Shown in pieces: positions 3,392 to 49,150 of a stretch of DNA of 64,000 nt. The notes beneath the pieces are model-generated. The model made no database searches and was not told the DNA's origin. It saw nothing but the letters and a program-made list of their open reading frames with translations. Position numbers and translations under genes: made by a program. Source of the stretch: Mobula birostris (taxonomy: Eukaryota); contig NC_092386.1 in assembly GCF_030028105.1 (NCBI RefSeq), positions 41,656,347-41,720,346 on the forward strand, read 5' to 3'. Position 1 is the first letter of the stretch, and each line of letters opens with the position of its first letter.

Positions 3392-6300
3392 CAGTAAGGT
3401 GGCAGCGCACTTGGTTGCTCTGGCGTAGTTGTTTAGCCTTCATGTCATTTTTATGATCGAAAGACACTGCTGGGTGATAAGATCATCAACTACTACAGGT
3501 CTTTACCATCAGCGAGTTGCTCGACAGCGTTGGAGCTGAATTTGTTGTGTATGGTGTTACAGCATCCCAAGGAGCAAAGTGTCTAAGTGCTGTATGGAGG
3601 CAGTGCACTGTCCAACAAACAGGGCAAAGAGTTTTTTTTCCTTATGGACATTTTGCTTCTGATCACAAGACCCTGTTGGACATCGGTAATGTAGACTACA
3701 GCAAATCCCAGACCAATGGTGGGGGAGCTGCGTGGCCTCAGCCGTTGTGCAGACCACGCCCTCATGCCACGGGGCTGCCTGATGCAAGGAGACACAAGTC
3801 GGTGTGGCACGGCAGCATCCATGCTGGTTTTGGGGCTGACTCCTCCTGTCAGTGCTGCCCTCTAGTGTTCGCTTGGTGGAAGACAAGCTGGATAGCAGTC
3901 ATCTGCCACGGCACTAATGCGAGACAAGGAACTGCTGCTAGTCTTGTAGAAAATGTGGCTTCAGGACAACATCCCATGCACCATCGATCTACAGGCCATG
4001 ACACTTAGGGATTTTGGCTATATTGTTCTTTTTATTTCAGCTCAAGCTAGTAAAATCTGAGGTATGAGCAAAACTAAGCACACTCATTTATCAACCGCTA
4101 GGAGCTTTTGGGCTATTCTAGTGGTGTTCAGTATTGTGGCTTTCTGAAGATTTACATAAATATTGCTGTGTAAGCCTGATTGTTTAATGTCATTGTGTAG
4201 TAACTTTGGGATGATACCTGTTGTAGATATTACTATTGGGTCAACGTATATATTGTTCATGTTTCATAGGCTTTCTATTTTCTCTTTTAATTCAGCATGT
4301 GTCTGGTGTTTTACACTCATTGATTTCTGTATGTAATTTATGTTAAGAATGGCTATATCCAGTAAGTAAGTTGTTCTTGTGTGTTTATCCTGTAATATTA
4401 TATCTGGATGGTAATTATGGATTGTCCTATCTGTAATAGTGGATTGGTCAAAATATAATTTGTAGGACTTTAACTCTAAAACTGGATCAGGCTTATATTA
4501 ATAGTAAGATATAGTGTCTTTTATGAGTTTGCATTTTAAAGCAAGATTTTGGTGAATGATGTTTGCCACTTGATTGTGCCTGTGTAAGTAAGCAGATTGA
4601 GTTAAACTGCTGCAGGATTCTGCAATGTGTTGGATTGCTCTGGTTTCTCTTGGCATTTTCTACATTGATCATCTAAAATTTTTTGGTCTTTTATTACATA
4701 TTTTTGATTTTTTTTTTGTTTAACCATCTGGTCCTGTATCGGCACAAGGAACCCCTCTTTTTCTGGGAAGTGGTTTCCAACTCTGAGCCAGGCATTCAAC
4801 GCTTCCTTGTTGATAACTAGTCCGCTCAGATCATGGGTATGTCTTCTATGGAGAGTCCTGCTCTTCCATTGGTTAACTTCTTCATTTCTTCATTTCAGTG
4901 ATAATTTCTTCATTTTCTGGGTTGTGTTTTCATTTAAGTTTAGTGGTGTGTAGTTGTTATCAGAATTGCATATGCTCATGTGGAGTGCTGGATTTTGTTT
5001 TTGCTGATGAAAGTATATCCTTAGAAGTTGTATCTGACTGTTCTGTAAATTTTTTATGCCTGTCATTCCTCTTCCTCCTTCCATCCTAGGTAATGTTAAT
5101 CTAAGTGTGTTCGAGTGTAGATAATGTTTTCTCAAATTTGTCATTTCAGTTCTTATTTTCCTTTGTAAATTTTCCAGATCAGTTTCTGACCAAGATATTG
5201 TGCCAAAACAACATGTCAATATGGAATAAAGGAAGTGTTTATTGCTGTTGTTATATTTTTACTACTAAGCTCTGTTCGGCAGATTTTCTTAATCCTTGAA
5301 GTAAATTCTGTCAAAAGTTTTCCTTTTATCATACTATGATCTGTTTTCTTTGCTTGTTGATATCCCAGATATTCATATGTTTCATATTCATCCATTGATT
5401 GTATTGTATCCTGCTGCTCTGTTTTATATTCTACTGGCTCTATTGCACATTTCTTTCTCTTTAATGTTCTGCACTTATCTAGTCCAAAGTTCATGTTTAT
5501 ATCTTTAGAAAATAGTTTACTTTTGAACTAATTGCTTTAGCTTTACTGATGAAGGAGCATATACTTTCAAATTGTCCATGTATAGAAGGTATAATTTGTT
5601 TGGTGTCCCTGGTTTGATACTGAATTTTCATCCGATTCAGTAAATTATAGAGTGGATTTGAAGCTAGACAAAACCATAGTGGGCTTAGAGAGTCAACATG
5701 GCAAATGCCTCAGTTTATTTTGATAACGGTGGTTGGTTGTTAATTAATAGGGTGATTATAGTACCCCTATGCTTCCTCAGATCTTAAAGGAATTTCACAA
5801 GTCTTCAATATAGTTTATATATATTAAGAACTCCTATTAACCACACTTGTGGGACAGAATCAAATGCTTTTTGGTAGTCAATATAACAACATGAAAGACT
5901 TCTGCTTTTCCAATCAGCTTGATTTAGAATTACAGGATCTTTTATCAGATGTTCTTTCCATCCTTTCATACCCTTACAGTATCCTTCCTACTGATCTGTA
6001 AGTATATAGTGGATATCGAAGTGAGTGGTGACTAGTTGCGAGATGCATGATGTTAAAATTTTACATATAGTTTGTAAGCATGTAATAGAATGCTATCTTG
6101 ATGGATCATTTGAGATTTTTCCTTGTGGTAAGAGATATGTTTTATCTTCTGTCAAAAAATTGTGCACTTTTTCAGGATTTTTAAGAGAATTGTTGCTAAG
6201 TATTAATAAGTACAGATGAAGGCAAGTTAATTTTTTTGACCAATAATTACACACATTACAACAGCTGGTACTTTTCCAGTTGTGGGTAGTTTTTATAACT

Positions 6301-7155
6301 GCTTTTAGCATTACCTTTGTAACTTCAGGTACTTGCATTTCTTCAATTGTGTGAATGTGTTCTTTTTCCTCCCTAACCGGCTTGCTTCTTGACTGTGCAT
6401 CAACCTATTCGACCAGATATTAGACCAAAAATTCATTATCTCTGTTGGTAATTCCGTGCAAGCATTAGTGACAGTTTGTTGTTTCATTGTCCTGTATAAA
6501 CCTTTTTCAATGTTTCTGAATTGATAATTCTGTTTTCTTCACCTGGTGCATTTCATATATCTATTTGGTCTGGCTTTGTATGCTCCAAGTTTTTGTTTCA
6601 GCGTAGCTATAAATTTTAAAATGTTTTTGTTAGGTTGATCATATATTGTATGGACCTTTTATTTCCATAGTATTTCTTTAGCTTTTCTCTTAACTTTTTG
6701 TTCAGGTTATCCATTTTATACTCCATTAGGCAGGCTATTTCTGCGCTTTAGGTTTCAATTTTGTTTCTTAATCTCTTCTGCCATTTCAGTGTTCTCATTT
6801 TATTACTCAGTTTTGGGTTTCTGTTAATGAGTACCTCTGGTTTTGAGCCATTTCATTGCACTGCTCTTAATGCTGTGCACTATGTTATTGTGTGTAGTTC
6901 TTAAAATGTTTCTAGTTTTCCTAAATATTGTGGTAATATGATATTATTGAGAATATTAACAATCATTATTATTATGATTGTTACTATACAGCATGTTTTA
7001 CTGCTTTCATAATTATATGTGCTATATGTATCTTACATTGTGTACCACTGTTGGTACTGCTATTTGCACCCTGGCCCCAGAGGAACGCTGTTTCATTTGG
7101 CTGTATTCATGTGTATGGTTGAATTACAATTAATCTTAAACTTGAACTTGAACTG
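3392..7155 (+). mobile_element. Non-autonomous bipartite LINE derivative (family A), split by the Dong insertion into 3392-4030 and 6975-7155
   Basis: Collinear with 62321-63049: shared 5' start taag(a/g)tggcagc, internal tgatcacaagaccctgttggacat and 3' ctggcccc...gtattcatgt...(cttgaa)n tail. Confidence 0.75.
4032..6960 (-). mobile_element. R4/Dong-clade non-LTR retrotransposon (RT plus restriction-like endonuclease), 5'-truncated and pseudogenised
   Basis: Minus-strand translation gives RT motifs YIDYQKAFDSVP (about 5850-5885), DSLSPLWFCLA (about 5660-5695) and LLYMDNLKVYA (about 5555-5590), then FGLDKC, LTLPRMEGGRG, EGFLVPIQDQ, a CRKC zinc knuckle, [10 protein letters not shown], the endonuclease PDIILQDK...LLDIA and terminal LQKATILNTTRI. 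Stop at about 4084-4086. Confidence 0.92.
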
Positions 7156-8436
7156 AATGAATCCACTGCAAACACTGTCCCTGCACAGACAGGATATAAT
7201 CAATCCTATATTGATATTGCAAACCTCTCCTTAATCTTCCTCACTGCAATATTACATCATACCTCCAAGAATCTCCCCACTGGAGTGGAACTGGTCTATA
7301 GGGTGAACTAGAAACTCTGTTGAATCCTGTTGCCTCTCTCCAAAACCAAGATCATTCCAAGCTCAATCATAGAGTTACCTTATACAGATGACTCTTGCAT
7401 ATGTGAAACTCTCAGAGGCTGAGATTCAAGTCATCATTACCACTTTCAGTCAGTCATTTAATGGATTGGTCTTACTGTTCTACCATATGTTTTCACCAAA
7501 GAACATTGTGGCCCAGTAGTGAGATGTTGGAAAACAGAGATCACTTTCCATATCATAGGGACCACTTCTCAGTGTATGGAGATATCAATGATGAAATTCA
7601 CCGCTAGTAGATCAAGAACCCACTCCAAGCACTAAATTTATGGTCTCTCAAGTAACCATGACCTCTGTCTCTTTCACACACTATAGACACGTAAGACCTA
7701 CAGATGGTGCATGCAGAGTAGTAGATAATTATTTCCAATACTATATTCAGAAGATCATTCAAACTGATAGGATAAGCCAACTCCCAGCATAAACTTTGAT
7801 CATGTTGAACCAGCTCCACTTGTTCAACAACATAATATGTACATCAGACATCAGACTCCTCCACTGCACTCTAAGCTCCAGGTGAAAAGAACATTTCAAA
7901 GTCTCCTTAAAATGATCTAATATCCCAACTAACTCATTACAATCCGTGGTCCAAGTGGAGATGGATCATCCAGAGAGGCAATGAGATCAGAGTGACTTGT
8001 CTTGTGTTCTTGGAATCTGCTTTAAATGTTCTGTTCTTTTTTTGGTAGATGAAATAATGATGAACGCCAGGCAGATTTTCACAAGGAACTCTTGATGGAA
8101 ACGTGAAGCATTGATTAGAGGTGAACTGGCATTCAGGTGCTTTTTGGCTAATTTTCAGTTCTACCATTAGTTGCACACAATCTCTTTCTTCTTCTTTGAT
8201 ATCTTGCTTCCACATTACTGTCCTTGTGCTTGCGGTGTCTGATTAATGTTACGTGGGATCCACAGATCTGATATAGGTGGGCAGATTGAGTTGCTCTGAG
8301 GTTCTGCTCTCCATTCGCTGTTTCACTAGGCCACCTAAGTGTGCCGCAATAGTTGGCTGAAGGGCCTGTCTGTTCTATAATGCTTTATGTTCTCTGTTCT
8401 ATCTGCTTCCCTTCAAAATAACCAGATTGAAAGTAC

Positions 8437-8910
8437 ATCTAATCAGCCAATCATCACAGCAACTCAATGCATAAAAGCATGTAGACATGTCAAGGTGTTC
8501 AGAGTAAACATCAGAATGCAGAAGAAATGCGATCTAAGTGACTTTGACTATTGAATGATTGTTGGTGTAAGACAGGGTGGTTTGGGTATCTCAGGAACTG
8601 GTGATCTCCTTGGATTTTCAAGCACAACAGTCTCTAGAGTATACAGAGAATGGTGCAAAAAACAAAAAAAAATCCAGTGAGCGGGAGTTCTGTGAGTAAA
8701 AATGACTTGTTTGTGAGAAAGGTCGGATGAGACTGGTTCAAACCAAAAGAAAAACGACAGGAACTCAAATAAATATGCATTACAACAATGGTGCACAAAA
8801 GAGCATCTCTGAGCGCACGACACATTGAACTGTGTAGACAGGCTGGGCTATAGCAGCAGAAAACCACACCGGGCTTCACTCCTGTATCTAATCAAGTGGC
8901 CACTGTGTGT
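8437..8910 (+). mobile_element. Tc1-like DNA transposon deletion derivative (N-terminal HTH region plus right TIR)
   Basis: Translates as KKCDLSDFD..MIVGVRQGGLGISGTGDLLGFSSTTVSRVYREWC...SISERT...GYSSRKP. Right TIR ctaatcaagtggccactgtgtg at about 8888-8909. Confidence 0.85.
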
Positions 8911-10374
8911 TCATTAACAAAAGAAGGTCAGGAATTCAACCACTTTGTCCAAACAATGATAAACCTTCACCAAAAACTCAACTTGCAAGCATTTGAAGTG
9001 GAGTATTAGAAAAGTAATCTTGAAAGAGAACTTTCAGGAAATGTTGAGTCCCTGCAAAGATAAATAAAGTTATTAATGCTCCAGAAATTTAATTTGGCCA
9101 TCTAAAAATTATGGTTCCCTCTAGTTGTTTTCTAAGATTAGGGTTTTTTTTCAATATTGCATATCTAAAGATATTTCTTGGCAGTTCAACCTTCCTTCCT
9201 TTCTCTGAATTTGGTTTCAAAGATTTATGTTCCTGTTCTTTTCACAAACATGACCTCTCCAGGCCTATGTCTTAAAAAACATATATACACTTAATAGTGT
9301 AGTTTGAACGTTTGAGAAACAAGTTTATAACACAGGGCGAAAGAAAGACTTGAAAAATTTATATTGAAATGTTTCACATACATTGTGAATAAAGCCAAGT
9401 TCTTTGATCCAGAGACTATAAATACATCTTGAAGCAACAATAACATGGCATTGCTTCAATAAGAGAATAATATCACTTGAACTTGAGCTGTTGTGAAGTA
9501 GGCACAGTGTACAGAATTTAATTCAAACCTCCTTTCATCCAGGAGTTGATAGTTCCTTTTCTTTGGTCTATTTCTGGAATACAAGTCTGTCTTCAAGTTT
9601 GTTTTGATGTATATCTTACTTAGAATGGAGGAAGTGATCTTTCCTTTAGTTAAAGTACAACATTTTATTTTAAATAAAGAAAATTATCAAAGGGATCGGA
9701 TCAAAGACTTTTAAAAATTGTGTAGATCTGATTGGAAGAGTTCACTCACCTCTCAGGAAAAGGAAATAGGTTGTTTGGGGCTTGTCAGTGTTTTATTTGT
9801 AACACAATCAAATCACAATGATAATCCTTGAAAACACAGCTCACCATTTTCCCTTATGCCTTTTGTTATATAGGGGATATTCGAGATACCGTCAATAAAG
9901 CAAGAATTCATTCGCAAACTGGCAAGTTCAATCCATTGCTTGTATCCCTAAAAAATAAATTAATGGAAATTATATCAGAAGTCAATGTTTTATGAATGTT
10001 TAGAGTATAAAAGGAAGTTGCATCCAGCATAACTCCTCCAAAATAAGCAATATTTAAAGAAGGGTTGGAAATTTGTGTGTTTTATGGGTTTTATTTTACT
10101 TGGGTTTGCAGAAAACATTTAATGAAGTTCTATAAATGAAACATAAAATTGATGGCATCTACAATATACCATGTGGTTGTCTAAACCTAAGAGAGACCAC
10201 ACCTTCTATAAAAACCACTCTGCTCTACTGGCTTTTAAATAGTTAACTCCACAGATTCTCAGCACAGTCTGAAGTACAAGTGCTAGTCCAGATTCTCAGT
10301 CCCCCTGCAGAAAAGCGTGAACAATGCGCCTTAGGAGGCAAATAACATGATTAAAAACTAAGACAGAAAATAGA

Positions 10375-10720
10375 GGCACAAGAAATACAGATGCTAGAAT
10401 CTGGAACAGCACACGCAAAGCGCTGGAGGAACTCAGTAGGTCAGGTAGCATCTATGGAGGCAAATGGACAACAAAGTTTCAGCTTGAGACCCTTCATCTG
10501 AACTAATAGTTCATTTCATTCCATAGATGCTACCTGGCTTGTTGGGTTCCATCAGTGTTTTGTGTATGACTTAAAACAGAAAATGCAGGAGATATTCAGC
10601 AAGTCACTGACTTGAGACGCTTTTCTGAAGAAAAGATATTGACCAGAAGCATTACCTTGCTATCTCGCTCAGTAGATGCTGCATAACCTGCTGAGTATCC
10701 CTAGTATTTCCTCGTTTGAA
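10375..10720. mobile_element. Two adjacent Penelope-related fold-back short elements
   Basis: gctggaggaactcagtaggtcaggtagcatctatgga paired with ccatagatgctacctgg; second copy gcaggagatattcagc paired with agatgctgcataacctgctgagtat. Hammerhead cores are degenerate. Confidence 0.8.
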
Positions 10721-14635: not shown

Positions 14636-15884
14636 TTATAATTGTCATAATATTGTTACATTTTTATGTTCCAGTGTCTCATCATCACTTGAAAAACAAG
14701 CGGACATTGAAAAAGTTTTCCTCCTTTCCTTTTCAAGGAGCTCTTATGAAACCCCACTCATTCTTCCCATCTCTGGTTTCTACTGCACTCCCGCTCTTTG
14801 ACCACATTCTTACCAAGAGGGTCTATTACAACCATTTTTCCTTCCTGCTCCTAATGCAGGGTTTTGGCCCAAAAGGTTGACTGTCCTTTAGCCCACAGAC
14901 GTTGCACTCATCAGAAACCCTGCACAACCTGAAAAAGTCTTCTTCTTCTTAGGTTGTATCACAGATTCAAGAATGATTCATTTCCATTCTAGTTCTGTGA
15001 GCAGTAAGCTAGCTAATGAGGTCAACATGAGCACTGCAGCCTCAATAATGTGGATGTTGACCTGGAGAAGGACTCTGCTGTTGGACCAGTGAACTTGGAG
15101 GATTTTTGCAAAGGTAGTACTAAGTGTATTTTTCCTGGGCTTGGAGATGCTTGCTGAAGGTGGTCCAAGCCTCAGGAGCATGCAGGAGGGGATCACGGCT
15201 GTCTGATCTACCTTGAGTTCTGTGCTGGATCTGAGTTCTTAATCTACTGTACCCTTTCAATAATCAGCTAAATGCAACACAGGCCCACAAAAGGTGAATT
15301 TCAAGACTTTTGCTTTCACCAAAAAATGGCTCCTGAGATATGGGAATTGATCCACATTTTGAGGATGTCACTGTGAACCTTTATTGTTGGAGGCAGGTTG
15401 GTGTAGCAAGACATGTGTACCACACTATTGATGTGTCAGTTGCTAAGAAGGATTTAACATTAAAATCTGTTTTTTTTGTCCTCGTGGATATTAAAAATTT
15501 CATGACATTAATGGAGGACAAAGTACTCCCTCTGCGTTGGTACCTATTCACCCATGCTAGTCATTAACAATGAGCACAACTGCAAATCTAACTGATACAT
15601 TATTTTAACTGCAAATTCAGTACCACTATCAGATGTACTTTCCTTTTCACGCATTTCCTACTTGGTTGCTGTCTTTTGTGTAAGTTAACATCACCTCTGA
15701 AGTTTCAAGTCTGCAAGATACAGTTTCATAGTCTATTTTTGAAGAAACAAACGTGGGCTCAAAAGAATGAAATACTGCAATTTATCAAAGCACAAGATAA
15801 AAATGTTTGAATTTGCACAATAAATCTTGATTTGAACACTGTAAAAAAGTTGGGTGATGGGAAAAGTATAAGGTGCATAAAACA

Positions 15885-16045
15885 ACACACACAAAATGCT
15901 GGAGGAACTCTGCAGGTCAGGCAGTGTCTATGGAGAGGAATAAGCAGTTGATATTTCAGTCCAAGATCTTTCATCAAGAGTCCTGATGAAGGGTCTTAAC
16001 CTGAAATGTTGACTTTTCGGCATCTGCAGAATCTCTTGAGTTTAT
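15885..16045. mobile_element. Penelope-related inverted short element carrying a hammerhead motif
   Basis: Two arms joined head-to-head at about 15978. Flanking duplication gcataaaaca at 15875-15884 and 16051-16060. Confidence 0.85.
15979..16014 (+). ncRNA. Minimal type-I hammerhead ribozyme motif, CpG-decayed variant
   Basis: AGUC-CUGAUGA-AGG(gucuuaa)CCU-GAAAU-GUU-GACU. Stems I and II pair; GAAACGUC has decayed to GAAAUGUU. Confidence 0.55.
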
Positions 16046-16227: not shown

Positions 16228-17280
16228 CATATACTTTATACTTTATAAAGTATTGTTGCCAAACAATTGATACTAGAATGTACAATAATCACAGCGATAT
16301 TTGATTCTGCACTTCCTGCTCCCTGGAGTACAAATCTATATAAATATTAAAAATTTAAATTATGAGTCATAAATAGAAAATAGAAAAGGGAAAGTAAGGT
16401 AGTGCAAAAAAACTGAGAGGCAGGTCCGGATATTTGGAGGGTACGGCCCAGATCCGGGTCAGAATCCGTACAGCAGTCTTATCACAGTTGGAAAGAAGCT
16501 GTTCCCAAATCTGCCATATGAGTCTTCAAGCTCCTGAGCCTTCTCCCGGAGGGAAGAGGGACGAAAAGTGTGTTGGCTGGGTGGGTCGTGTCCTTGGTTA
16601 TCCTGGCAGCACTGCTCCGACAGCGTGTGGTGTAAAGTGAGTCCATTGGTTTGTGTGATGTGCTGGGCTGTGTTCATGACCTTCTGCTGCTTCTTCCGGT
16701 CTTGGACAGGACAACTTCCATACCAGGTTGTGATGCACCCTAGAAGAATGCTTTCTACGGTGCCAAATTTCTTTAGTTTTCTCAGGAAGTAAAGGCGCTG
16801 GTGGGCCTTCTTGGTAGTGGACTCTGCTTGGCTGGATCAAGTCAGGTCATTTGTGATATTGACCCCGAGGAACTTAAAGCTTTTGACCTGTTCCACTGGC
16901 ACACCACCAATGTAAGTGGGGTCGTGCGGTCCACTACTTCTTCTGAAGTCAACAACTAATTCCTTCATCTTGCTGACATTGAAGGATAGGTTATTGTCTT
17001 CGCACCATGCCAACAGGTTCTTAATTTTCTCTCTGTACTGAAACTCATCATTACCCGAGATATGGCCTACAATTGTGGTGTCATCAGCAAACTTGTATAT
17101 TGAGTTCGATGGAAACTTGGCTACACAATCATGAGTGTACAGTGAGTACAGCAGGGGGCTGAGTACACAGCCTTGTGGGGCACCAGTGCTCAGAGTGATT
17201 GTAAAGGAGAGCTTGTCCCCTACTTTTACAGCCTGGGTCCTGTCTATGAGGAAGTTGAAGATCCAGCTGCAGATCTGAGT
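16228..17280 (-). mobile_element. Rex1/Babar-type LINE, 3' portion
   Basis: Minus strand encodes TGAPQGCVLSPLLYSLYTHDC, KFADDTTIVG and terminal GNSFFPTVIRLL. (tatactt)n tail at about 16229-16246. Confidence 0.9.
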
Positions 17281-19484
17281 GTATATATTGCACCTTAAAC
17301 AGACTCAACTCCATGGAGACTTAAGAGCTGCTGAGGAGGGAAGTGTTTGACACTAAACAGTCCACAACTCTTGAAATTAGTGCCGGTATCAGAGGATAGG
17401 TGCGCATTTGATTTAAAGTCAAGGACATGAATAAATAAAGATTGAGACCATGAATAGGAAGGAATGATAGATATTAAGAAACTCACCCTTTGATGAATAA
17501 AAAAATGACAAAAGTTGTTGCTGTTTCATCATGAACGGGGAATGGAAGGTGAACTTCTGATTCTGCTATTGAATTGAACCATTTGTGACAAGACTAGAAA
17601 TTGTGAGCACTCAGGGTTTGTAGACTAGAGGACAGTGATGAATGTAGAGTGGTCTTCAGCAGAAGAGTGAATTTATGGTCAAGTAAACAAATGGTAATAT
17701 TACCTGTGAAAGACCATTAATTTTTACAGGACCGCACTTCGGGCTATTTGCCAGCACAGCAGTCATTTATACAAAAGTGTGATAAAATTCTGCCATAGAC
17801 CTATCAGCTCATTACCTGCTCCAGGTAATTGCCCATTTATTCACTATTACAGTGATTGAAGGTTTCTCCTACTGAATCTATCCAGTCTTGTTTTGATACG
17901 TATTTTATGTACGATACATAGGTGGATATTACTTTGGATACAACGCCAATTAATCTCTTTGCCAGCACTGTTTCAACAATTCATCGCATTTAAGAAAACA
18001 GTGAACAATATGGGCTTTTAGTTATGAGAATAAACTTGTGGATAAAAGGTGAGGAAAACAGTGAGTGAATGAACATTTTTAAACTTTTAGCTGAATAATT
18101 AGATTTTGCATCAGAAACAGAGATCCAGAATTTTTTTTTTGTTGAAAAGAAATGTTTTTGTTTAGGATTTCTGATGCAAGAGCACAGCATTAAAAGCAAG
18201 TTACAGTGATTCCACAGATCCTGTTGAATTGGTCTTTCCTATCCTGTTGTTATGCCCATATCTGTACTGTAATAATAAATTTTACTTTGAACTTTGAACT
18301 TTTCTCTCTCTAGAGTTCCAAATTGATCAGTTTCAAGATCCTTGTTCAAAATACCGTCACCCACCCTGGACTCTCTGCACCTCCGTTCACCCCTATGTTC
18401 CGAAGAAGACGAAGGGAACATTCAATCCCTATTTGTAAAATCTGGGAGCCCATTTTTTTTTAATCCCCTGTTCTAGGATTTCCATTGTGGTCAGATGTCT
18501 GCATTAAATTTCCAAACTCTGTGTTCCTCTATTTCATAGTTAATTTACTTCACAATGTTCCGCTAAAAATCCTCTGTGCAAGCTATACATTTCACGAATA
18601 GTCACTTGACTGCCTAATGCGTTTATTCATCCTTGGATTCACTTAGAGTACATCTTTCATACAGCTGTATTTGCCATGCCATCTTCAAAGGTTGATGGTA
18701 TGTTCCCTTTCTTAAATCTACTTCATTTTTGTATATATTAAGAGTATATTTTATTCTCTATTCTCTCCCCAGAACCAAGCCTATTTGTACTGCCATTTCC
18801 CTCATGAATACCATGGCTTGACATTTTATTGTAGTAATATGGATCTGCAGTCATCAGTCATAACTTAAGAAACAGCTCACAATGTAGAGCACAAATGGCT
18901 ATCTGGGATGTCTGCCAAGGACCACAGGTGAGACTGAGGACTTGTGGGGAGCCAATTTGTAGAGAGCATGTGTGTAATGTCTGAAAGCAGCCTTCAGTTT
19001 TAATGTAAATTGGGAAGTACCACTCCTGCCCCATCAGAATGACATAAATTCTCCTCCTTAAAAACCAGACATAGAGTTGGCTTTAAGAACCATGGCTTAG
19101 GCCACACGTAATTCTGGTAATCCTGAATACTGTAAGGTTTCATTTGCAGCTTTTTGCTTTGTTGTAAAGCAAGCAGTGTGTGAGCTGAAATATCTGGAAT
19201 ATCCCCTAGCCCAATTTTACAAGAACTGCCTGGACCTGCATGCAGTCTGAGGATTAAAGAACATGCAGATTGTCAGATCTATGAATTTTGTAATGGCAAA
19301 TGGGAACATTCTGTGCCATGTAAAAACAGGCTCACAAAGCTGTGTAGATAATTGTGTAACACAACACATGCAGTTGAAAATTCTTCCCAAGTTGCTTTAA
19401 AATGACACAATGTCAATGACAACTGGTGCAATACAATGTAGTACAGAAATGACTCATAGCATGTCTTAACATAAATGATGCAGT

Positions 19485-20153: not shown

Positions 20154-21591
20154 ACCATTTATCTAAGTAACAACTTGTATTCAAATGAAATACAGAACAA
20201 ATTAAAACACTACAAATACCTCTACAGTACTGTAAGCTTGTGTTTTAGTTCCCAATTGGTATTGACAGAGGAAATCCTCCAGTGTACAGTACCATGATGT
20301 CTTGATTGACTGTAAATGAACAAAATCAGCGCAGAAACCTATTGCAGATAATGGACTGCCTCTGTACAGTGCTATGGACGATTGCATCCTCCAAATATTG
20401 ATTGCCACCTGATTGGTTCCAAGGGTTTGGACGGGGCAGGGTTTGTTAAGTGTGTCCAGGACGGATTCCTGTCACAGTATGTTGACAGGCCGACTCGGGG
20501 AAATGCCATACTAGATCTAGTACTAGGTAATGAACCGGGTCAGGTCACAGATCTCTCAGTGGGTGAGCATCTGGTGGACAGTGACCACCGCTCCCTGGCC
20601 TTTAGCATTATCATGGAAAAGGATAGAATCAGAGAGGACTGGAAAATTTTTAACTGGGGAAGGGCAAATATTGAGGCTATAAGGCTAGAGCTTGCGGGTG
20701 TGAATTGGGATGATGTTTTTGCAGGGAAACGTACTATGAACATGTGATCGATGTTTAGGGATCTCTTGCAGGATGTTAGGGATAAATTTGTCCCGGTGAG
20801 GAAGATAAAGAAATTTAGGGTGAAGGAACCATGGGTGACAAGTGAGGTGGAAAATCTAGTCAGGTGGAAGAAGGCAGCATACATGAGGTTGAGGAAGCTA
20901 GGATCAGATGGGTCTATTGAGGAATATAGGGTAGCAAGAAAGGAGCTTAAGAAGGGGCTGAGAAGAGCAAGAAGGGGACATGAGAAGGCCTTAGCGAGTG
21001 GGGTAAAGGAAAACCCCAAGGCATTCTTCAATTATGTGAAGAACAAAAGGATGACAGGAGTGAAGGTAGGACCGATTAGAGATAAAGGTGGGAAGATGTG
21101 TCTGGAAGATGTGGAAGTGAGCGAGGTCCTCAATGAATACTTCTCTTCGGTATTCACCAATGAGAGGGAACTTGACGGTGAGGACAATATGAGTGAGGCT
21201 GATGTTCTGGAGCATGTTGATATTAAGGCAGAGGAGGTGTTGGAGTTATTAAAATACATTAGGACGGATAAGTCCCCGGGGCCTGACAGAATATTCCCCA
21301 GGCTGCTCCACGAGGCGAGAGAAGAGATTGCTGAGCCTTTGGCTAGGATCTTTATGTCCTCGTTGTCTACAGGAATGGTACCGGAGGATTGGAGGGAGGC
21401 AAATGTTTTCCCCTTGTTCAAAAAAGGTAGTAGGGATAGTCTGGGTAATTATAGACCAGTGAGCCTTACGTCTGGGGTGGGAAAGCTGTTGGAAAAGATT
21501 CGTAAAGATAGGATCTATGGGCATTTAGAGAATCATGGTCTGAGCAGGAACAGTCAGCATGGCTTTGTGAAGGGCAGATCATGTCTAACAA

Positions 21592-21691
21592 CACACATAA
21601 AAGTTGCTGGTGAACGCAGCAGGCCAGGCAGCATCTCTAGGAAGAGGTGCAGTCGACGTTTCAGGCCGAGACCCTTCGTCAGGACTAACAA
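21592..21691 (-). mobile_element. 100-bp Penelope-related insertion within CR1 ORF2
   Basis: ctaacaa duplicated at 21585-21591 and 21685-21691. Removing the insert restores GRSCLTSLIELFEEVT in one frame. Confidence 0.92.
21651..21686 (-). ncRNA. Minimal type-I hammerhead ribozyme motif, intact core
   Basis: Minus strand reads AGUC-CUGACGA-AGG(gucucgg)CCU-GAAAC-GUC-GACU. Both conserved boxes (CUGANGA, GAAA) are present, with a 4-bp stem I, 3-bp stem II, palindromic ACGU stem III and a GUC cleavage triplet. Confidence 0.75.
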
Positions 21692-23469
21692 GCCTGATAG
21701 AGCTCTTTGAGGAGGTGACCAGGCATATAGATGAGGGTAGTGCAGTGGATGTAATCTATATGGATTTTAGTAAGGCATTTGACAAGGTTCCACACAGTAG
21801 GCTTATTCAGAAAGTCAGAAGGCATGGGATCCAGGGAAGTTTGGCCAGGTGGATTCAGAATTGGCTTGCCTGCAGAAGGCAGAGGGTCATTGTGGAGGGA
21901 GTACATTCGGATTGGAGGGTTGTGACTAGTGGTGTCCCACAAGAATCAGTTCTGGGACCTCTATTTTTCGTGATTTCGATGAACGACCTGGATGTGGGGG
22001 TAGAAGGGTGGGTTGGCAAGTTTGCAGATGACACAAAGGTTGGTGGTGTTGTGGATAGTGTAGAGGATTGTCGAAGATTGCAGAGAGACATTGACAGGTT
22101 GCAGAAGTGGGCTGAGAAGTGGCAGATGGAGTTCAACCCAGAGAAGTGTGCGGTGGTACACTTTGGAAGGACAAACTCCAAGGCAGAGTACAAAGTAAAT
22201 GGCAGGATACTTGGTAGTGTGGAGGAGTAGAGGGATCTGGGGGTACATGTCCACAGATCCCTGAAATTTGTCTCACAGGTGGATAGAGTAGTTAAGAAAG
22301 CTTATGGGGTGTTAGCTTTCATAAGTTGAGGGATAGAGTTTAAGAGTCGCAAGGTAATGATGCAGCTCTATAAAACTCTGGTTAGGCCACACTTGGAGGA
22401 CTGTGTCCAGTTCTGGTCGCCTCACTATAGGAAAGATGTGGAAGCATTGGAAAGGGTACAGATGAGATTTACCAGGATGCTGCCTGGTTTAGAGAGTATG
22501 GATAGTGATCAGAGATTAATGGAGCTAGGGTTTTACTCTTTGGAGAGAAGGAGGATGAGAGGTGACGTGATAGAGGTGTACAAGATATTGAGAGGAATAG
22601 ATAGAGTGGATAGCCAGCGCCTCTTCCCCAGGGCACCACTGCTCAATACAAGAGGATATGGCTTTAAGGTAAGGGGTGGGAAGTTCAAGGGGGATATTAG
22701 AGGAAGGTTTTTTACTCAGCAGGTGGTTTGCGTGTGGAATACACTGCCTGAGTCAGTGGTGGAGACAGATACACTAGTGAAATTTAAGAGACTACTAGAC
22801 AGGTATATGGAGGAATTTAAGGTGCGGGGTGGTACATGGGAGGCAGGGTTTGAGGGTCGGCACAACAATGTGGGCCGAAGGCCCTTTTCTGTGCTGTACT
22901 ATTCTATGTTCTATCTCCATTTTCATTTTAAAATTCAAGGTAATTGTTGATACCTTCAAAGTCTTCGCACTTCCTTATTTGTTGAAATAGTAAAATTATT
23001 TAATTTTCATTATCAACCATTTCTGGCATCTCGAAGCCTGAATGCTTGAAACCGCAGTGAACAAAACAATTCTGAAATGTCCTACTGCTTATTTCTCACC
23101 AACTATCAGTAACAAAAATCATTGTTTTTAAACACAAACACACACAACTAACACTATTTAAAAACTGTTTTCTCTAAGTACATGTAGAATCCAATGGCCA
23201 TCCAAGTGCATGCTACTAGTGCCTGTTAGAAGCTGCTCAGCAATCATTCCCTGTCCCGGTTAAGTGGCAGAGTCTCCCAAATAAAGAAGAGGAATCCCAG
23301 CTATTTTCTCAATTAGTTTTTGTTCTTTAAGAGTTGTCCCAAGTAAGCTGCTGCCCCAATTAACGGATTTCCCAGTTAACCTGAATCCATTTTATATAAA
23401 GACAAAATGCTAATTTTCAAAATGTGAAATCATTTAAATTAAATCAGTTAACTAAAACTGTTGCTGGCA

Positions 23470-28490: not shown

Positions 28491-28575
28491 GTAATATATT
28501 ATCTGTCTCCGACTTTTCTTACCACAGCTATTGTTGATTTCCCTTTAAGGCCCCTATGTGTCCTCGTCACAGCTT

Positions 28576-28722
28576 CACTCACAACACACTGGAGGAACTC
28601 AGCAGGTTGGGCAGCATCCGTGGAAAAGGTCTTTTCCACAGATGCTGCCAGACCTGCTGAGTTCCTCCAGCATGTTGTGAGTGTTGCTTTGACCCCAGCA
28701 TCTGCAGAGTATTTTGTGTTTA
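28576..28722. mobile_element. Penelope-related fold-back element with 14-bp TSD
   Basis: TSD cctcgtcacagctt (28562-28575, 28723-28736). 53-bp inverted arms at 28576-28628 and 28631-28683, plus a 39-nt one-sided tail. Confidence 0.92.
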
Positions 28723-33271: not shown

Positions 33272-33841
33272 TAGGTGAAGATAATATAAGAGAAATCTCC
33301 CATGCAGCATGTACACATTGATTTACTAGAGAAAAAATGTTCAATTGTCTGCATGTTTTACAATTATTTGATATATAGATAGCGGTTGTATTTTCTCTGT
33401 AAAATATTAGTATAATTTTCAACAGTCACACTGCTACACTATACAATCAAAATCTTCTTTGGAAAATCTTTCAGAGTCCTCATCTGTCCTTTTAGGTAAC
33501 GGGCATTTGAAGGAAGATTGCTTGAATTTGAATACACCCCAATAAAACTGGCTTTAATCTCCCACAACAAAGACTCCAAGTGATCAGTTAATTATATAGA
33601 TAATGAGCAGAAACCAATAAATGACTACCGTGAATTTAAAATGGATAAGTTATGTGACATCAATATTCAATTAATTAGTTAATAGAACAATTAGTGCTCA
33701 CCATTTGAAATCATACACATTCATTCCTGCTGCGTTCACCAGCAATTTTTGTGTGTTACATTCATTCCTAGCTTTCCTGCCATTTTCTTTTTCATTCCAG
33801 TTTCTCATTTGTAATTTATTTTGTAAAACGTTAAAATTTAT

Positions 33842-45547: not shown

Positions 45548-48500
45548 CATAGAGCCATAAAACCATAGAACACTACAGCATAGAAAACAGGCCATTCAGC
45601 CCTTCTAGTCTGTGCTGAAACATTATTCTGCTAGTCCCATTGACCTGTATCCAGTCCATAACCCTCCAGACCTCTCCCATCCATGTACCTATCCAATTTA
45701 TTCTTAAAATGTAAGAGTGAGCCTGCATTTACCATGTCAGATGGCAGCTCGTTCCACACTCCCACCACTCTCTGAAGAAGTTCCCCCTATCTTCACAATC
45801 TTTTCTAGTCCTTGTGATTCTGTTTCTTTTCCTTTGATACAATACTAATTTTAACTTATTTTGATATCCAAAGGAGTTGCTGTTTAGTACCATTTTAACT
45901 TTGCTCCACCCTCCACAATTAGAGAAACAGAGAAAAAGATAGGAAAGTATCAGAGGAATGCCTAACTATCAAAGAATTAATACATCATTTACGTGTAATG
46001 TATATTCTTTCAAGGCAAAAGTAACAGGAAAAATGGCCCAGACAAGGCTATCAAAATAAGTTAAAATTACTATTGCATCAAAGGAAAAGGCTTACTATAT
46101 TGCCAAGAAACAGAATCACAAGTGAAGAATCTCCGGAGGGGAAGGCCCCGAGTCCTCGGCTTTGCTAATTGTTCGGCGGCCGGGGCGGGGTCAAAGCACT
46201 CAGCAGAGATGGTGCTCGGTGCTCGGTGTCGGAGGGCTGGTCGGAGCCTCGAAGTTTTCCGATGGACTCAGAGTCGACTGCAGTCGGGTGCCTCCAATGC
46301 ATTGGCAAGTTTGCGGCGCTTGGAGTTTCATGGCAGGGAGAGTTTCTCTCTTCTACCGTCTGCGTGAGATGATAGGGCTATTGGGACTTGAGACTTTTTT
46401 TACTGTGCCCATGGTCTGCTCTTTATCAAATTACGGTATTACTTTGCATTGTTGTAACTATATGTTATAATTATGTGGTTTTGTCAGTTTTAGTCTTGAC
46501 TTGTCCTGTGTTTCTGTGATATCTTTCTGGAGGAACATTGTATCATTTTTAATGCATGCATTTCTAAATGACAATAAGCGAGGACTGAGTGTCCTCATAA
46601 TCTAATCTAATCTAATCTAATGTTCCCCCTAAACTTTTCCCTTTCCACTCTAAAGCTATGTCCTCCCATATTTTTCTCTCCTAATCTAAGTGGAAAGAGC
46701 CTATTCACATATACTATGCCTATACCCCTCATAATTTTATAAACCTCTATCAAATCTCCCTTCATTCTTCTACGCTCCAAGGAATAAAGTCCTAACCTGT
46801 TCAATCTTTCCCTCTAATTCAATTCCTGAAGACGCGGCAACATCCTAGTAAATCTTCTCTGCACTCTTTCAATCTTACTGATATACCTTCCTATAGTTAG
46901 GTGACCAGAACTGTACACAATACTCCAAATTTGGCCTCACCAATGTCTTATACAACCTCTCCATAACGTCCCAACTCCTATACGCAATACTTTGATTTAT
47001 GAATGCCAGGATGCCAAAAGCCTTCTTTACAACCCTGTCTACCTGTGATGCCACTTTCAGGGAATTATGTATCTGGTCTCCCAGATCTCTTCGTTCCTCC
47101 GCACTCCCCAGTACCCTACCATTTACTGTGTATGTTCTACCTTGATTTGTCCTTCCAAAATGCAACACCTCACACTTGTCTGCATTAAATTCCATTTGCC
47201 ACTTTCTGGCCACCCCCCCCCAGTTGTTGCAGATCCCTCTGCAAGCTTTGAAAGCCTTCCTCACTGTCCACAACGCCTCCAATCTTAGTGTCATCAGCAA
47301 ACTTGCTGATCCAATTTACCACATTATTATCTAGATCATTGATATAGACAACAAACAACAATGGTCCCAGCACAGATCCCTGAGGCACACCACTAGTCAC
47401 AGGCCTCCAGTCTGAGAGGCAATCATCCACTACCACTCTCTATCTTCTCCCACACAACCAATTTCAAATCCAATCTCTCCATGGATACCTAGTGACTGAA
47501 CCTTCTGAACTAAGCTCCCATGTGGGACCTTGTCAAAGGCTTTACTGAAGTTCATATAGAAACATCCACAGCCTTTCCTTCATCTACTTTCTTGGTAACC
47601 TCCTCGGAAAACTCTACAAGATTCGTTAAACATGATCTACCACGCACAAATCCATGCTGACTATCCAAATCAGCCCTTGAATGTCCAAATATTTGTATAT
47701 CTGATCTCTCAGAACACCTTCCAATAATTTACCTACTGCTGACGTCAGGCTCACCAGCCTGTAATTACCTGGTTTACTTTTGGAGCCTTTTTTAAACAAC
47801 GGAACAACATGAGCTACCCTCCAATCCACTGGCACTATACCCATGGCTGTGGACATTTTAAATACTTCTGCCAGGGCCCCTGCAACTTCTAAACTAACCT
47901 CTCTCAAGGTCCGAGGAAATATCTTGTCAGGCCCCAGGGATTTATCTACCTTTATTCGCTGTAAGGCAGCAAGCACCTCCTCCTTTTTAATCTCTATATG
48001 CTCCATGACACTGCTGCTTGTTTCCCTTCCTTCCATATACACTACGCCAGTTTCCTGAGTAAATACTGATGCAAAAAAACTGTTTAAGATCTCCCCCATC
48101 TCATGAGGCTCCACACATAGACGACCACTTTGAATTTCTAGGGGACCAATTTTGTTCCTTACTATCCTTTTACTCAATATACTTGTAGAAACCCTTCGGG
48201 TTTACCTTCACATTATCTGCCAAAGCAACCTCATGTCTTCTTTTTGCCTTCTTGATTTCCTTTTTTAGTATTTTTTATGTTCTTCAAGTACCTCATTTTT
48301 TCCTTGTTGCCTATACCTGCTATGCACCTCTCTCTTTTTCTTAACCAGATTGCCAATATCCCTTGAAAACCAAGGTTCCCTATACCTGTTAAATTTGCCT
48401 TTAATCCTGGCAGGAACATGCAAACTCTGCACTCTCAAAATTTCACCTCTGAATGCCTTCCACATACTGAACACATCCTTGCCAGCAAACAACTTATCCC

Positions 48501-49150
48501 AATCCACTCTTCCTAGATCCTTTCTCATTTCCTCAAAATTGGCCCTTCTCCAGTTTAGAACCTTAACTCGAGGACCAGACCTATCCTTATCCATAATTAA
48601 CTTGAAACTAATGACATTATGGTTACTGGACCCAAAATGTTTGCCTACACATACTTCTGTCACCTGACCCGTCTGGTTCCCTAATAGGAGATCAAGTATT
48701 GCATCCTCTCTCGTTGGTACCTCTATATATTGATTTAGAAAACTTTCCTGAACACATTTGACAAACTCTACGCCACCTAACCCTTTCACAGCGTGGGAGT
48801 CCCAGTCAATACGTGGAAAGTTAAAATCCCCTACTATTACAACTTTCTGTTTCTTACATCCGCCTGCTATCTCTCTACAGATTTGCTCCTCCAATTCTCT
48901 CTGACTATTGGATGGTCTATAATACAACCCTATTAATGTGGTCACACCTTTCCTGTTCCTCAGCTCCACCCATATGGCCCCTGTAGACAAGCCCTCCAGG
49001 CTGTCCTGTCTACGCACAGTTGTGATATTCTCCTTGCTAGTAATGCCACTCCTCCCCCTTTCATTCCTCCCCCTCTGTCACGTCTGAAACAACGGAACCC
49101 TGGAACATTAAGCTGCCAGTCCTGCCCCTCCTGCAACCAAGTCTCACTAA
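45548..49150 (-). mobile_element. CR1 LINE, most of ORF2 (APE plus RT), pseudogenised
   Basis: SETWL, GGGVALL, IGLYYRP, VGDFNFP, PTREDAILDL, NYRLVSLTS, SGVPQGSVLGP, KFADDTK and YCVQFWSP. Tail (ccataga)n at 45547-45570. Confidence 0.96.
45792..46621 (+). mobile_element. Composite insertion: locally templated DNA plus 5'-truncated family-B-related retroelement with (TAATC)n tail
   Basis: 45792-45866 copies 43752-43844. 45869-46122 is the reverse complement of 43771-44012. 46123-46621 is homologous to the 3' part of 42832-43452. Confidence 0.9.

Follow-up and report, generated by a model that had tools for sequence, protein, structure and literature searches.

How did a segment with a complete hammerhead core come to lie, on the minus strand, inside a LINE, and does it represent an element family of its own? 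This is the question raised by a 100-bp insert in the 64,000-nucleotide stretch of Mobula birostris DNA that was analysed here (the window). A sequence-only reading had seen in it a separate, non-autonomous and retrozyme-like family derived from Penelope-like elements (PLEs). Our results confirm the PLE connection and point to another status for the repeat, as the insert is probably a run-off copy of the uncleaved leader RNA of an autonomous PLE. The features are collected in Table 1; positions within the element are counted from C3 of the hammerhead (position 0, window 21682, minus strand), which places the predicted cut at +27|+28.

Table 1. Features of the insert and of its host LINE, in window coordinates.
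Feature	Positions	Strand	Remark
Host LINE (CR1-like)	20352..22950	+	RT frame shifted by the insert; further breaks present
Insert, widest reading	21589..21689	-	pLTR segment -7 to +93 of a Neptune-type Penelope-like element
7-bp repeat, 5'-junction copy	21685..21691	+	5/7 bases also match the element (-7 to -3)
7-bp repeat, 3'-junction copy	21585..21591	+	3/7 bases also match the element 3' end
Minimal type-I hammerhead motif, predicted	21651..21686	-	core and architecture as in PMC4209133
Stem I, AGUC	21686-21683	-	
CUGACGA	21682-21676	-	
GAAA	21662-21659	-	
C-G	21658-21657	-	
U	21656	-	
C17	21655	-	
GACU	21654-21651	-	
Conserved 3' part of the pLTR (+46 to +93)	21589..21636	-	predicted stem-loop ending at the short 3' site

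The interrupted LINE is presumably a CR1, a name that we take from its motifs. It gives RVT_1 matches on both sides of the insert, and its frame resumes after the insert with an offset of 1, as expected from the frameshift already proposed: ...KGRSCLT, to the left, and SLIELFEEV..., to the right, lie in different frames. The same proposal had described a clean 100-bp insertion flanked by a 7-bp duplication. The 100-bp insert holds, CTAACAA being found at 21585 and again at 21685, at a spacing of 100 bases; the duplication is fully explained by microhomology: TTG is the 3' end of the element and GTTAG its bases -7 to -3. As element sequence covers the 7-base repeat from both sides, the true target duplication may be of 0 to 7 bases. 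The 3' end of the insert corresponds to a "short" 3' site, without a tail of about 35 nt. No host exon was found among the 54 frames of at least 95 aa in the window, where matches are to LINE-type domains only, and the insert shows no sign of a host function. Minus-strand LINE remnants are also present at window 16459-17304 and 48265-49077 (RVT_1 with an ALKBH8_N-like tail; Exo_endo_phos_2).

The minus strand has the complete set of core bases for a minimal type-I hammerhead, and both the core and the cut position (21655|21654) had been correctly recognised from the letters alone. The CUGANGA, GAAA and UH boxes and helices I and II are accompanied by a single base between positions 9 and 10.1, by a palindromic 15.2-16.2 (ACGU) and by no loop 3, as in PLE minimal type-I hammerheads. 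Stem II had been drawn as AGG-gucucgg-CCU; this drawing is replaced by an extra, unpaired A followed by a 4-bp helix (GGGU/GCCU, with a CUCG loop), a form typical of PLE hammerheads (PMC4209133) and of lower energy (-6.0 vs -4.6 kcal/mol). The insert copy thereby has a G.U wobble at the conserved 10.1-11.1 pair. G10.1-U11.1, with U at +19, is found in 58 of 77 young copies and G-C in 17, while all three older subfamily consensuses have C at 11.1 and form G10.1-C11.1. The young subfamily, mostly with U at 11.1 and hence the wobble, has yet reached tens of thousands of copies.

The descriptor search that had been suggested as a check came out in favour of the motif, with 155 hammerheads in 1.1 Mb of element-enriched loci and 0 in both the shuffled and the reversed controls. 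An Rfam scan of the window returned no hammerhead among 13 matches at E<=10. Stand-alone folding bears neither for nor against the motif, because it is no better than that of shuffles (z of 0.91, -0.81 and -0.36) and the minimum-energy fold is an inactive hairpin. When the consensuses of four subfamilies (6-120 copies each) are compared, all core bases and helices are common, and +33 to +46 and the upstream tract differ; changes inside the motif are restricted to N7, loop 2, 11.1, H17 and distal stem I, and no compensatory pair or covariation is seen in the helices among these four subfamilies of this genome. Such conservation fits selection and does not amount to covariation; +46 to +77 is also well kept. 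By analogy with the Poseidon element of Anolis carolinensis (PAc; Frangieh et al. 2024, PMC11167929), +46 to +93 is likely to be a protein-binding or RT-start region. A family with a different stem I was also searched for in the genome: 247 matches were obtained, and inspection of 30 showed members of the same families, either decayed or truncated.

The insert is a pLTR segment of an autonomous, Neptune-type element, its PLE origin being almost certain. It is identical in kind with the pLTR of full-length coding copies, which were reached by walking upstream from insert-like loci: L068, with 204-bp pLTRs that are 96.6% alike and an ATG at +169 followed by 93 codons, one stop and 918 open codons, and also L069, with a 642-bp repeat. 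The insert is co-linear with the pLTR of these copies, and 20 of the 30 best genome matches continue upstream into the 3' UTR or ORF of a coding element. The frames of this element match RVT_1 (E=1.4e-7) and, at the C-terminus, a GIY-YIG domain (E=0.003-0.004, below the Pfam cut-off), the GIY-YIG motif and a CCHH being visible in the ORF despite the sub-threshold score; two of five element frames gave no Pfam match. A single ORF flanked by pLTRs, with RT and a GIY-YIG at its C-terminus, is the layout of EN+ PLEs, whose 5' truncation, inverted 5' copy (at 5/7 extended loci) and optional 30-40-bp tail are all found as well. A Cx4CxxC linker lies between RT and endonuclease in L068. As a CX2-5CxxC linker is a mark of the Neptune clade, also present in Nematis (PMC8557442), and as only Neptune and Poseidon are reported for vertebrate PLEs in the available text of bioRxiv 10.64898/2026.07.22.740005, this linker points to the Neptune clade.

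The repeat is indeed very abundant, as had been supposed. A 34-mer from its 3' part has 54,289 exact matches in the genome (control, 0). In a sample made of the first 100 of these matches by position, from the first 5.5 Mb of one contig, the core and both stems are kept in 61 copies, and the palindrome too in 47, from which about 33,000 copies with core and stems, and about 25,000 with the palindrome as well, can be extrapolated to the genome.

The ends of the 100 sampled copies were also recorded. The 3' ends form two groups about 35 bases apart (49 at +79 to +104, 51 at +116 to +141), which match the two RT start sites bounding the tail in PAc, the insert using the short one (PMC11167929). 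The 5' ends are scattered upstream of -10 in 57 copies, and 36 copies are short units starting at -10 to +10. Among the 81 copies reaching the hammerhead edge, 21 end at -5 to 0, a rate of 0.043 per base that exceeds 30-fold the upstream one (0.0014; p=3e-25) and is also above that inside +1 to +40 (0.005; p=2e-14). Starts inside +1 to +20 are found in 15 copies, and a start at the cut site (+28) in a single one. Unit ends are therefore set by the 5' edge of the hammerhead and by the two 3' sites, and not by the cut site. A set of 38 short copies comprises 25 arranged head-to-head with an inverted arm, 12 flanked by host DNA, nine of which have target duplications of 8-14 bases, and one direct stutter. 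At four sites, with low resolution, their haplotypes are those of 54 long copies, in similar proportions. As both ends and haplotypes match those of long copies, short units appear to arise repeatedly from the coding family, on RNA left uncut by the hammerhead.

Direct tandems offer an additional view of these ends. They were collected with one uniform pattern (87 matches, all fetched); after same-locus repeats and duplicated loci were dropped, two scripts gave 75 or 76 independent junctions. Besides -4 and -8, starts are found at -9 and at -16 to -23. The steps at -4 and -8 are both pyrimidine|A, which we take to be in line with the initiator consensus. Of 11 junctions in which filler precedes a start at -4 or -8, 10 have G as the filler base (p=1.3e-4 against 1/3), and G precedes 5/6 sampled copies that start at -4. 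Other reverse transcriptases add C at the template end or cap, so that an extra G before the start is expected. Genome-wide, G is not dominant before -4, since a hand count of the first 100 of 4,200 matches with a non-native -5 base gave C 51, G 30 and A 19; older subfamilies with a native C at -5 account for 7/30 loci, and some G comes from microhomology. Finally, the starts of the two units of a locus track each other (rho 0.62; 15/23 vs 2/52), which suits second-strand synthesis restarting on one cDNA.

Taken as a mechanism, the run-off origin of the insert would involve the following steps. The GIY-YIG nuclease of the element would cut the host LINE, and reverse transcription would be primed by the cut LINE end, beginning at the short start site some 95 bases within the uncleaved transcript. 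The enzyme would then run off the RNA 5' end, likely at the front edge of the predicted hammerhead, and may add C opposite this end, probably a cap; the cDNA end would finally join the target by means of the 5-base microhomology. The hammerhead would be carried along because the leader opens with its ~36 bases. When alone in a stub, the predicted hammerhead would be inactive or weak, as a partner RNA and the element protein would be needed, the latter by analogy with PAc. That the 5'-end pile-up reflects run-off at an RNA 5' end seems to us likely; that this RNA end is a capped transcription start is only somewhat better than an even guess. Also counting against a leader starting at the hammerhead edge, the region just upstream resembles a 3' splice site, and the start site of Penelope in D. 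virilis lies well upstream of an intron ending at helix I (PMC2377424; PMC4209133).

The most serious competitor of run-off, although a rather unlikely one, is that the short units arise by ordinary 5' truncation on the 3' pLTR of long transcripts, no RNA end lying at the hammerhead edge and a strong RT stop being set there by RNA or cDNA structure or by a bound protein. Indeed, 57/100 copies pass this edge and truncate at scattered upstream points, and the region is generally stop-prone, as judged from the 15/100 copies that stop inside +1 to +20. A cDNA end at -4 can moreover pair with +28 to +31, a join shown by 2/30 loci, and the match between tandem-unit starts is compatible with any fixed cDNA end. 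Nevertheless, stem I should already be unwound when RT reaches -4, the extra G of the filler junctions suits run-off at a template end, and only 1/75 upstream tandem units extends to -25 or beyond. The 3' splice-site resemblance suggests a further scenario, in which the 5' ends come from splicing intermediates, RT stopping at the lariat branch or copying the processed exon. A branch-point-like TACTAAC, pyrimidines and CAG/TAG do lie at -24 to -3 in both pLTRs of L068, on the minus strand, ending right at stem I; the pyrimidine tract and CAG are kept in older subfamilies, starts at -18/-19 are found in 2/100 copies and at -18 in 6/75 junctions, and an intron ends at helix I in Penelope of D. 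virilis (PMC4209133). The main start is however -4, and not -2, -6 or -18, and a direct-orientation join to upstream element sequence, expected of a spliced exon, is seen in none of the 38 short copies, the stutter being their only direct join. We thus regard splicing intermediates as a very improbable source.

A further improbable reading, though less so than the last, makes the repeat a separate element with a hammerhead: non-autonomous, similar to retrozymes or SINEs, and dependent on PLE proteins acting in trans to mobilise master copies of its own. The number of short units starting at -10 to +10 and the duplications at 9/12 host-flanked copies would agree with such an element, whose stub may keep an internal promoter; L169 and L174 have the same 13-base filler between inverted arms, and PLE-derived retrozymes have been described, including one chondrichthyan (bioRxiv 10.64898/2026.07.22.740005). 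A separate family is not supported by the shared haplotypes, the full-length coding copies and the best matches running into the coding element. The short copies have no private haplotype at the four sites compared, and hence, within this low resolution, no non-coding lineage of their own as retrozymes have; both their ends vary and match those of long copies, 25/38 belong, as one arm, to head-to-head pairs whose junctions vary, and there is neither an array of whole units nor a pile-up at the cut site. Retrozymes are tandem units, each with a hammerhead, whereas the insert is a monomer and the stutters that form direct tandems are incomplete and infrequent (87 matches against 54,289 copies).

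If the leader RNA is usually copied uncleaved, do the tandems keep a trace of cleavage? In 76 junctions, the upstream unit ends at +27 in 19, at +26 in 7, at +28 in 1 and at +29 in 0; the others end at +30 (5), +33 (7), +34 (11) or elsewhere (26). The predicted cut base +27 is thus the commonest single end point (p ~4e-12 if a flat 30-base window is assumed, which this one is not). The 19 junctions of this class are joined to seven different starts and 15 of them lack microhomology; CpG decay leaves one of them uncertain, and two may be duplicates of each other. Upstream units ending exactly at the predicted cut base are possibly a new observation. Against cleavage, the second peak at +33/+34, which is not a cut site, is as large as that at +27, the tracking of unit starts fits a restart on one cDNA, and a new strand ending at +27 can fold +2 to +5 onto +24 to +27. 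Starts at the cut site gave 718 matches, with 12/30 truncated, vs 357 and 11/30 (8 by eye) three bases downstream; starts at +28 are therefore about 2-3-fold over the control position, mostly with microhomology, and concern roughly 1% of copies. Solo inserts ending at the cut site were found in 0/30 inspected from 406 matches (control, 1/30 from 263), which gives no support to priming on a cleaved 3' end. A jump between the two RNAs of a hammerhead dimer was set aside, because the unit starts of a locus track each other. It is consequently doubtful that cleavage causes the +27 ends. An equally tentative proposal is that the genome records both ends of the leader RNA, the stubs marking a capped start at the first base of stem I and the C17 stutters the 5' cleavage product. 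If true, in-vivo cleavage by a minimal hammerhead of a metazoan PLE would be traced here for the first time, and it would affect a minority of transcripts, clipping the cap-bearing leader. Four copies of one junction locus (L269-L272; G000:C7, 185.99-186.22 Mb) were also seen within 230 kb, as a local segmental duplication.

Minimal hammerheads are known in the pLTRs of metazoan PLEs, including Neptune of fish (Cervera and de la Pena 2014; PMC4209133), and both the hammerhead type and its tie to PLEs are already published. The present motif is like those in being of type I, with a 4-5-bp helix I, a base between 9 and 10.1, a palindromic 15.2-16.2 and no loop 3, and in its occurrence in both pLTRs and mostly as scattered single motifs from truncated elements. 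It differs in its 4-bp helix II (7-8 bp in S. mansoni), in the G10.1-U11.1 wobble of most young copies and in a copy number above the 4,000-9,000 motifs of coelacanth and Xenopus; in the available text of PMC4209133, sharks and rays are not named and end-point statistics are not reported. Activity of these hammerheads is low in previous reports, with no cleavage as monomers and low cleavage as dimers (PMC4209133), and 1/9 Xenopus dimers active (bioRxiv 10.64898/2026.07.22.740005). In PAc, cleavage is protein-assisted and not required for insertion, RNA-seq gave no ends at the cut, and insertion occurs from uncleaved RNA, as we propose here (PMC11167929). In both elements, the tail is delimited by two internal RT start sites at a distance of 30-40 bases, with the hammerhead upstream of the two sites. 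They belong to different clades, and in the present one, whose ATG is at +169, the 5' leader, not the ORF, contains the hammerhead together with both 3' sites; run-off leader copies and a 5'-end pile-up at the hammerhead edge are not described for PAc in the available text of PMC11167929.

The 5' truncation, partial tandems, inverted 5' copy, one-sided tail and solo pLTRs are in agreement with those of other EN+ PLEs (PMC8557442, PMC3846280). Solo pLTRs have been ascribed elsewhere to recombination or deletion (PMC3846280), whereas many stubs here have their own duplications and a preferred 5' end. Metazoan non-LTR retrozymes are likewise non-coding, with a type-I hammerhead and a tie to PLE pLTRs; they form tandem arrays, most of their hammerheads are canonical and their circular RNAs are abundant (PMC7229834; bioRxiv 10.64898/2026.07.22.740005), unlike the insert, which is a monomer co-linear with an autonomous element and whose ends are not at the cut site. 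Our searches of the open-access literature brought up no account of the family, nor of stubs made by run-off or of cut-site junctions. Our results touch on whether PLE minimal hammerheads cut in cells and on how pLTRs and inverted ends are built (PMC4209133, PMC11167929, PMC8557442). A young family of more than 54,000 copies allows single-base predictions: RNA 5' ends at -4/-8, RT starts near +95/+130 and a minor cut at +27|+28.

Some individual loci deserve mention. In L020 (~850-1625 in element orientation), a short unit is followed by a longer truncated copy, and one 12-base target sequence is present three times, at the two outer ends of this pair and between its members. L169 and L174 are unlinked head-to-head loci, and their near-identical filler hints at a small re-copied fold-back lineage. 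As to the window itself, about ten relatives of the insert had been counted; a profile finds 14 pieces including the insert, and both core boxes are present only in 2/14. The only other piece with both boxes is the plus arm at 15983. Older head-to-head copies lie at window 15878-16017 and 10397-10568, and head-to-head 3' parts of an older subfamily, without hammerhead, at 28570-28692, where a long hairpin gives rise to spurious Rfam matches. A 36-base 3' fragment at 33726-33761 is like the young subfamilies.
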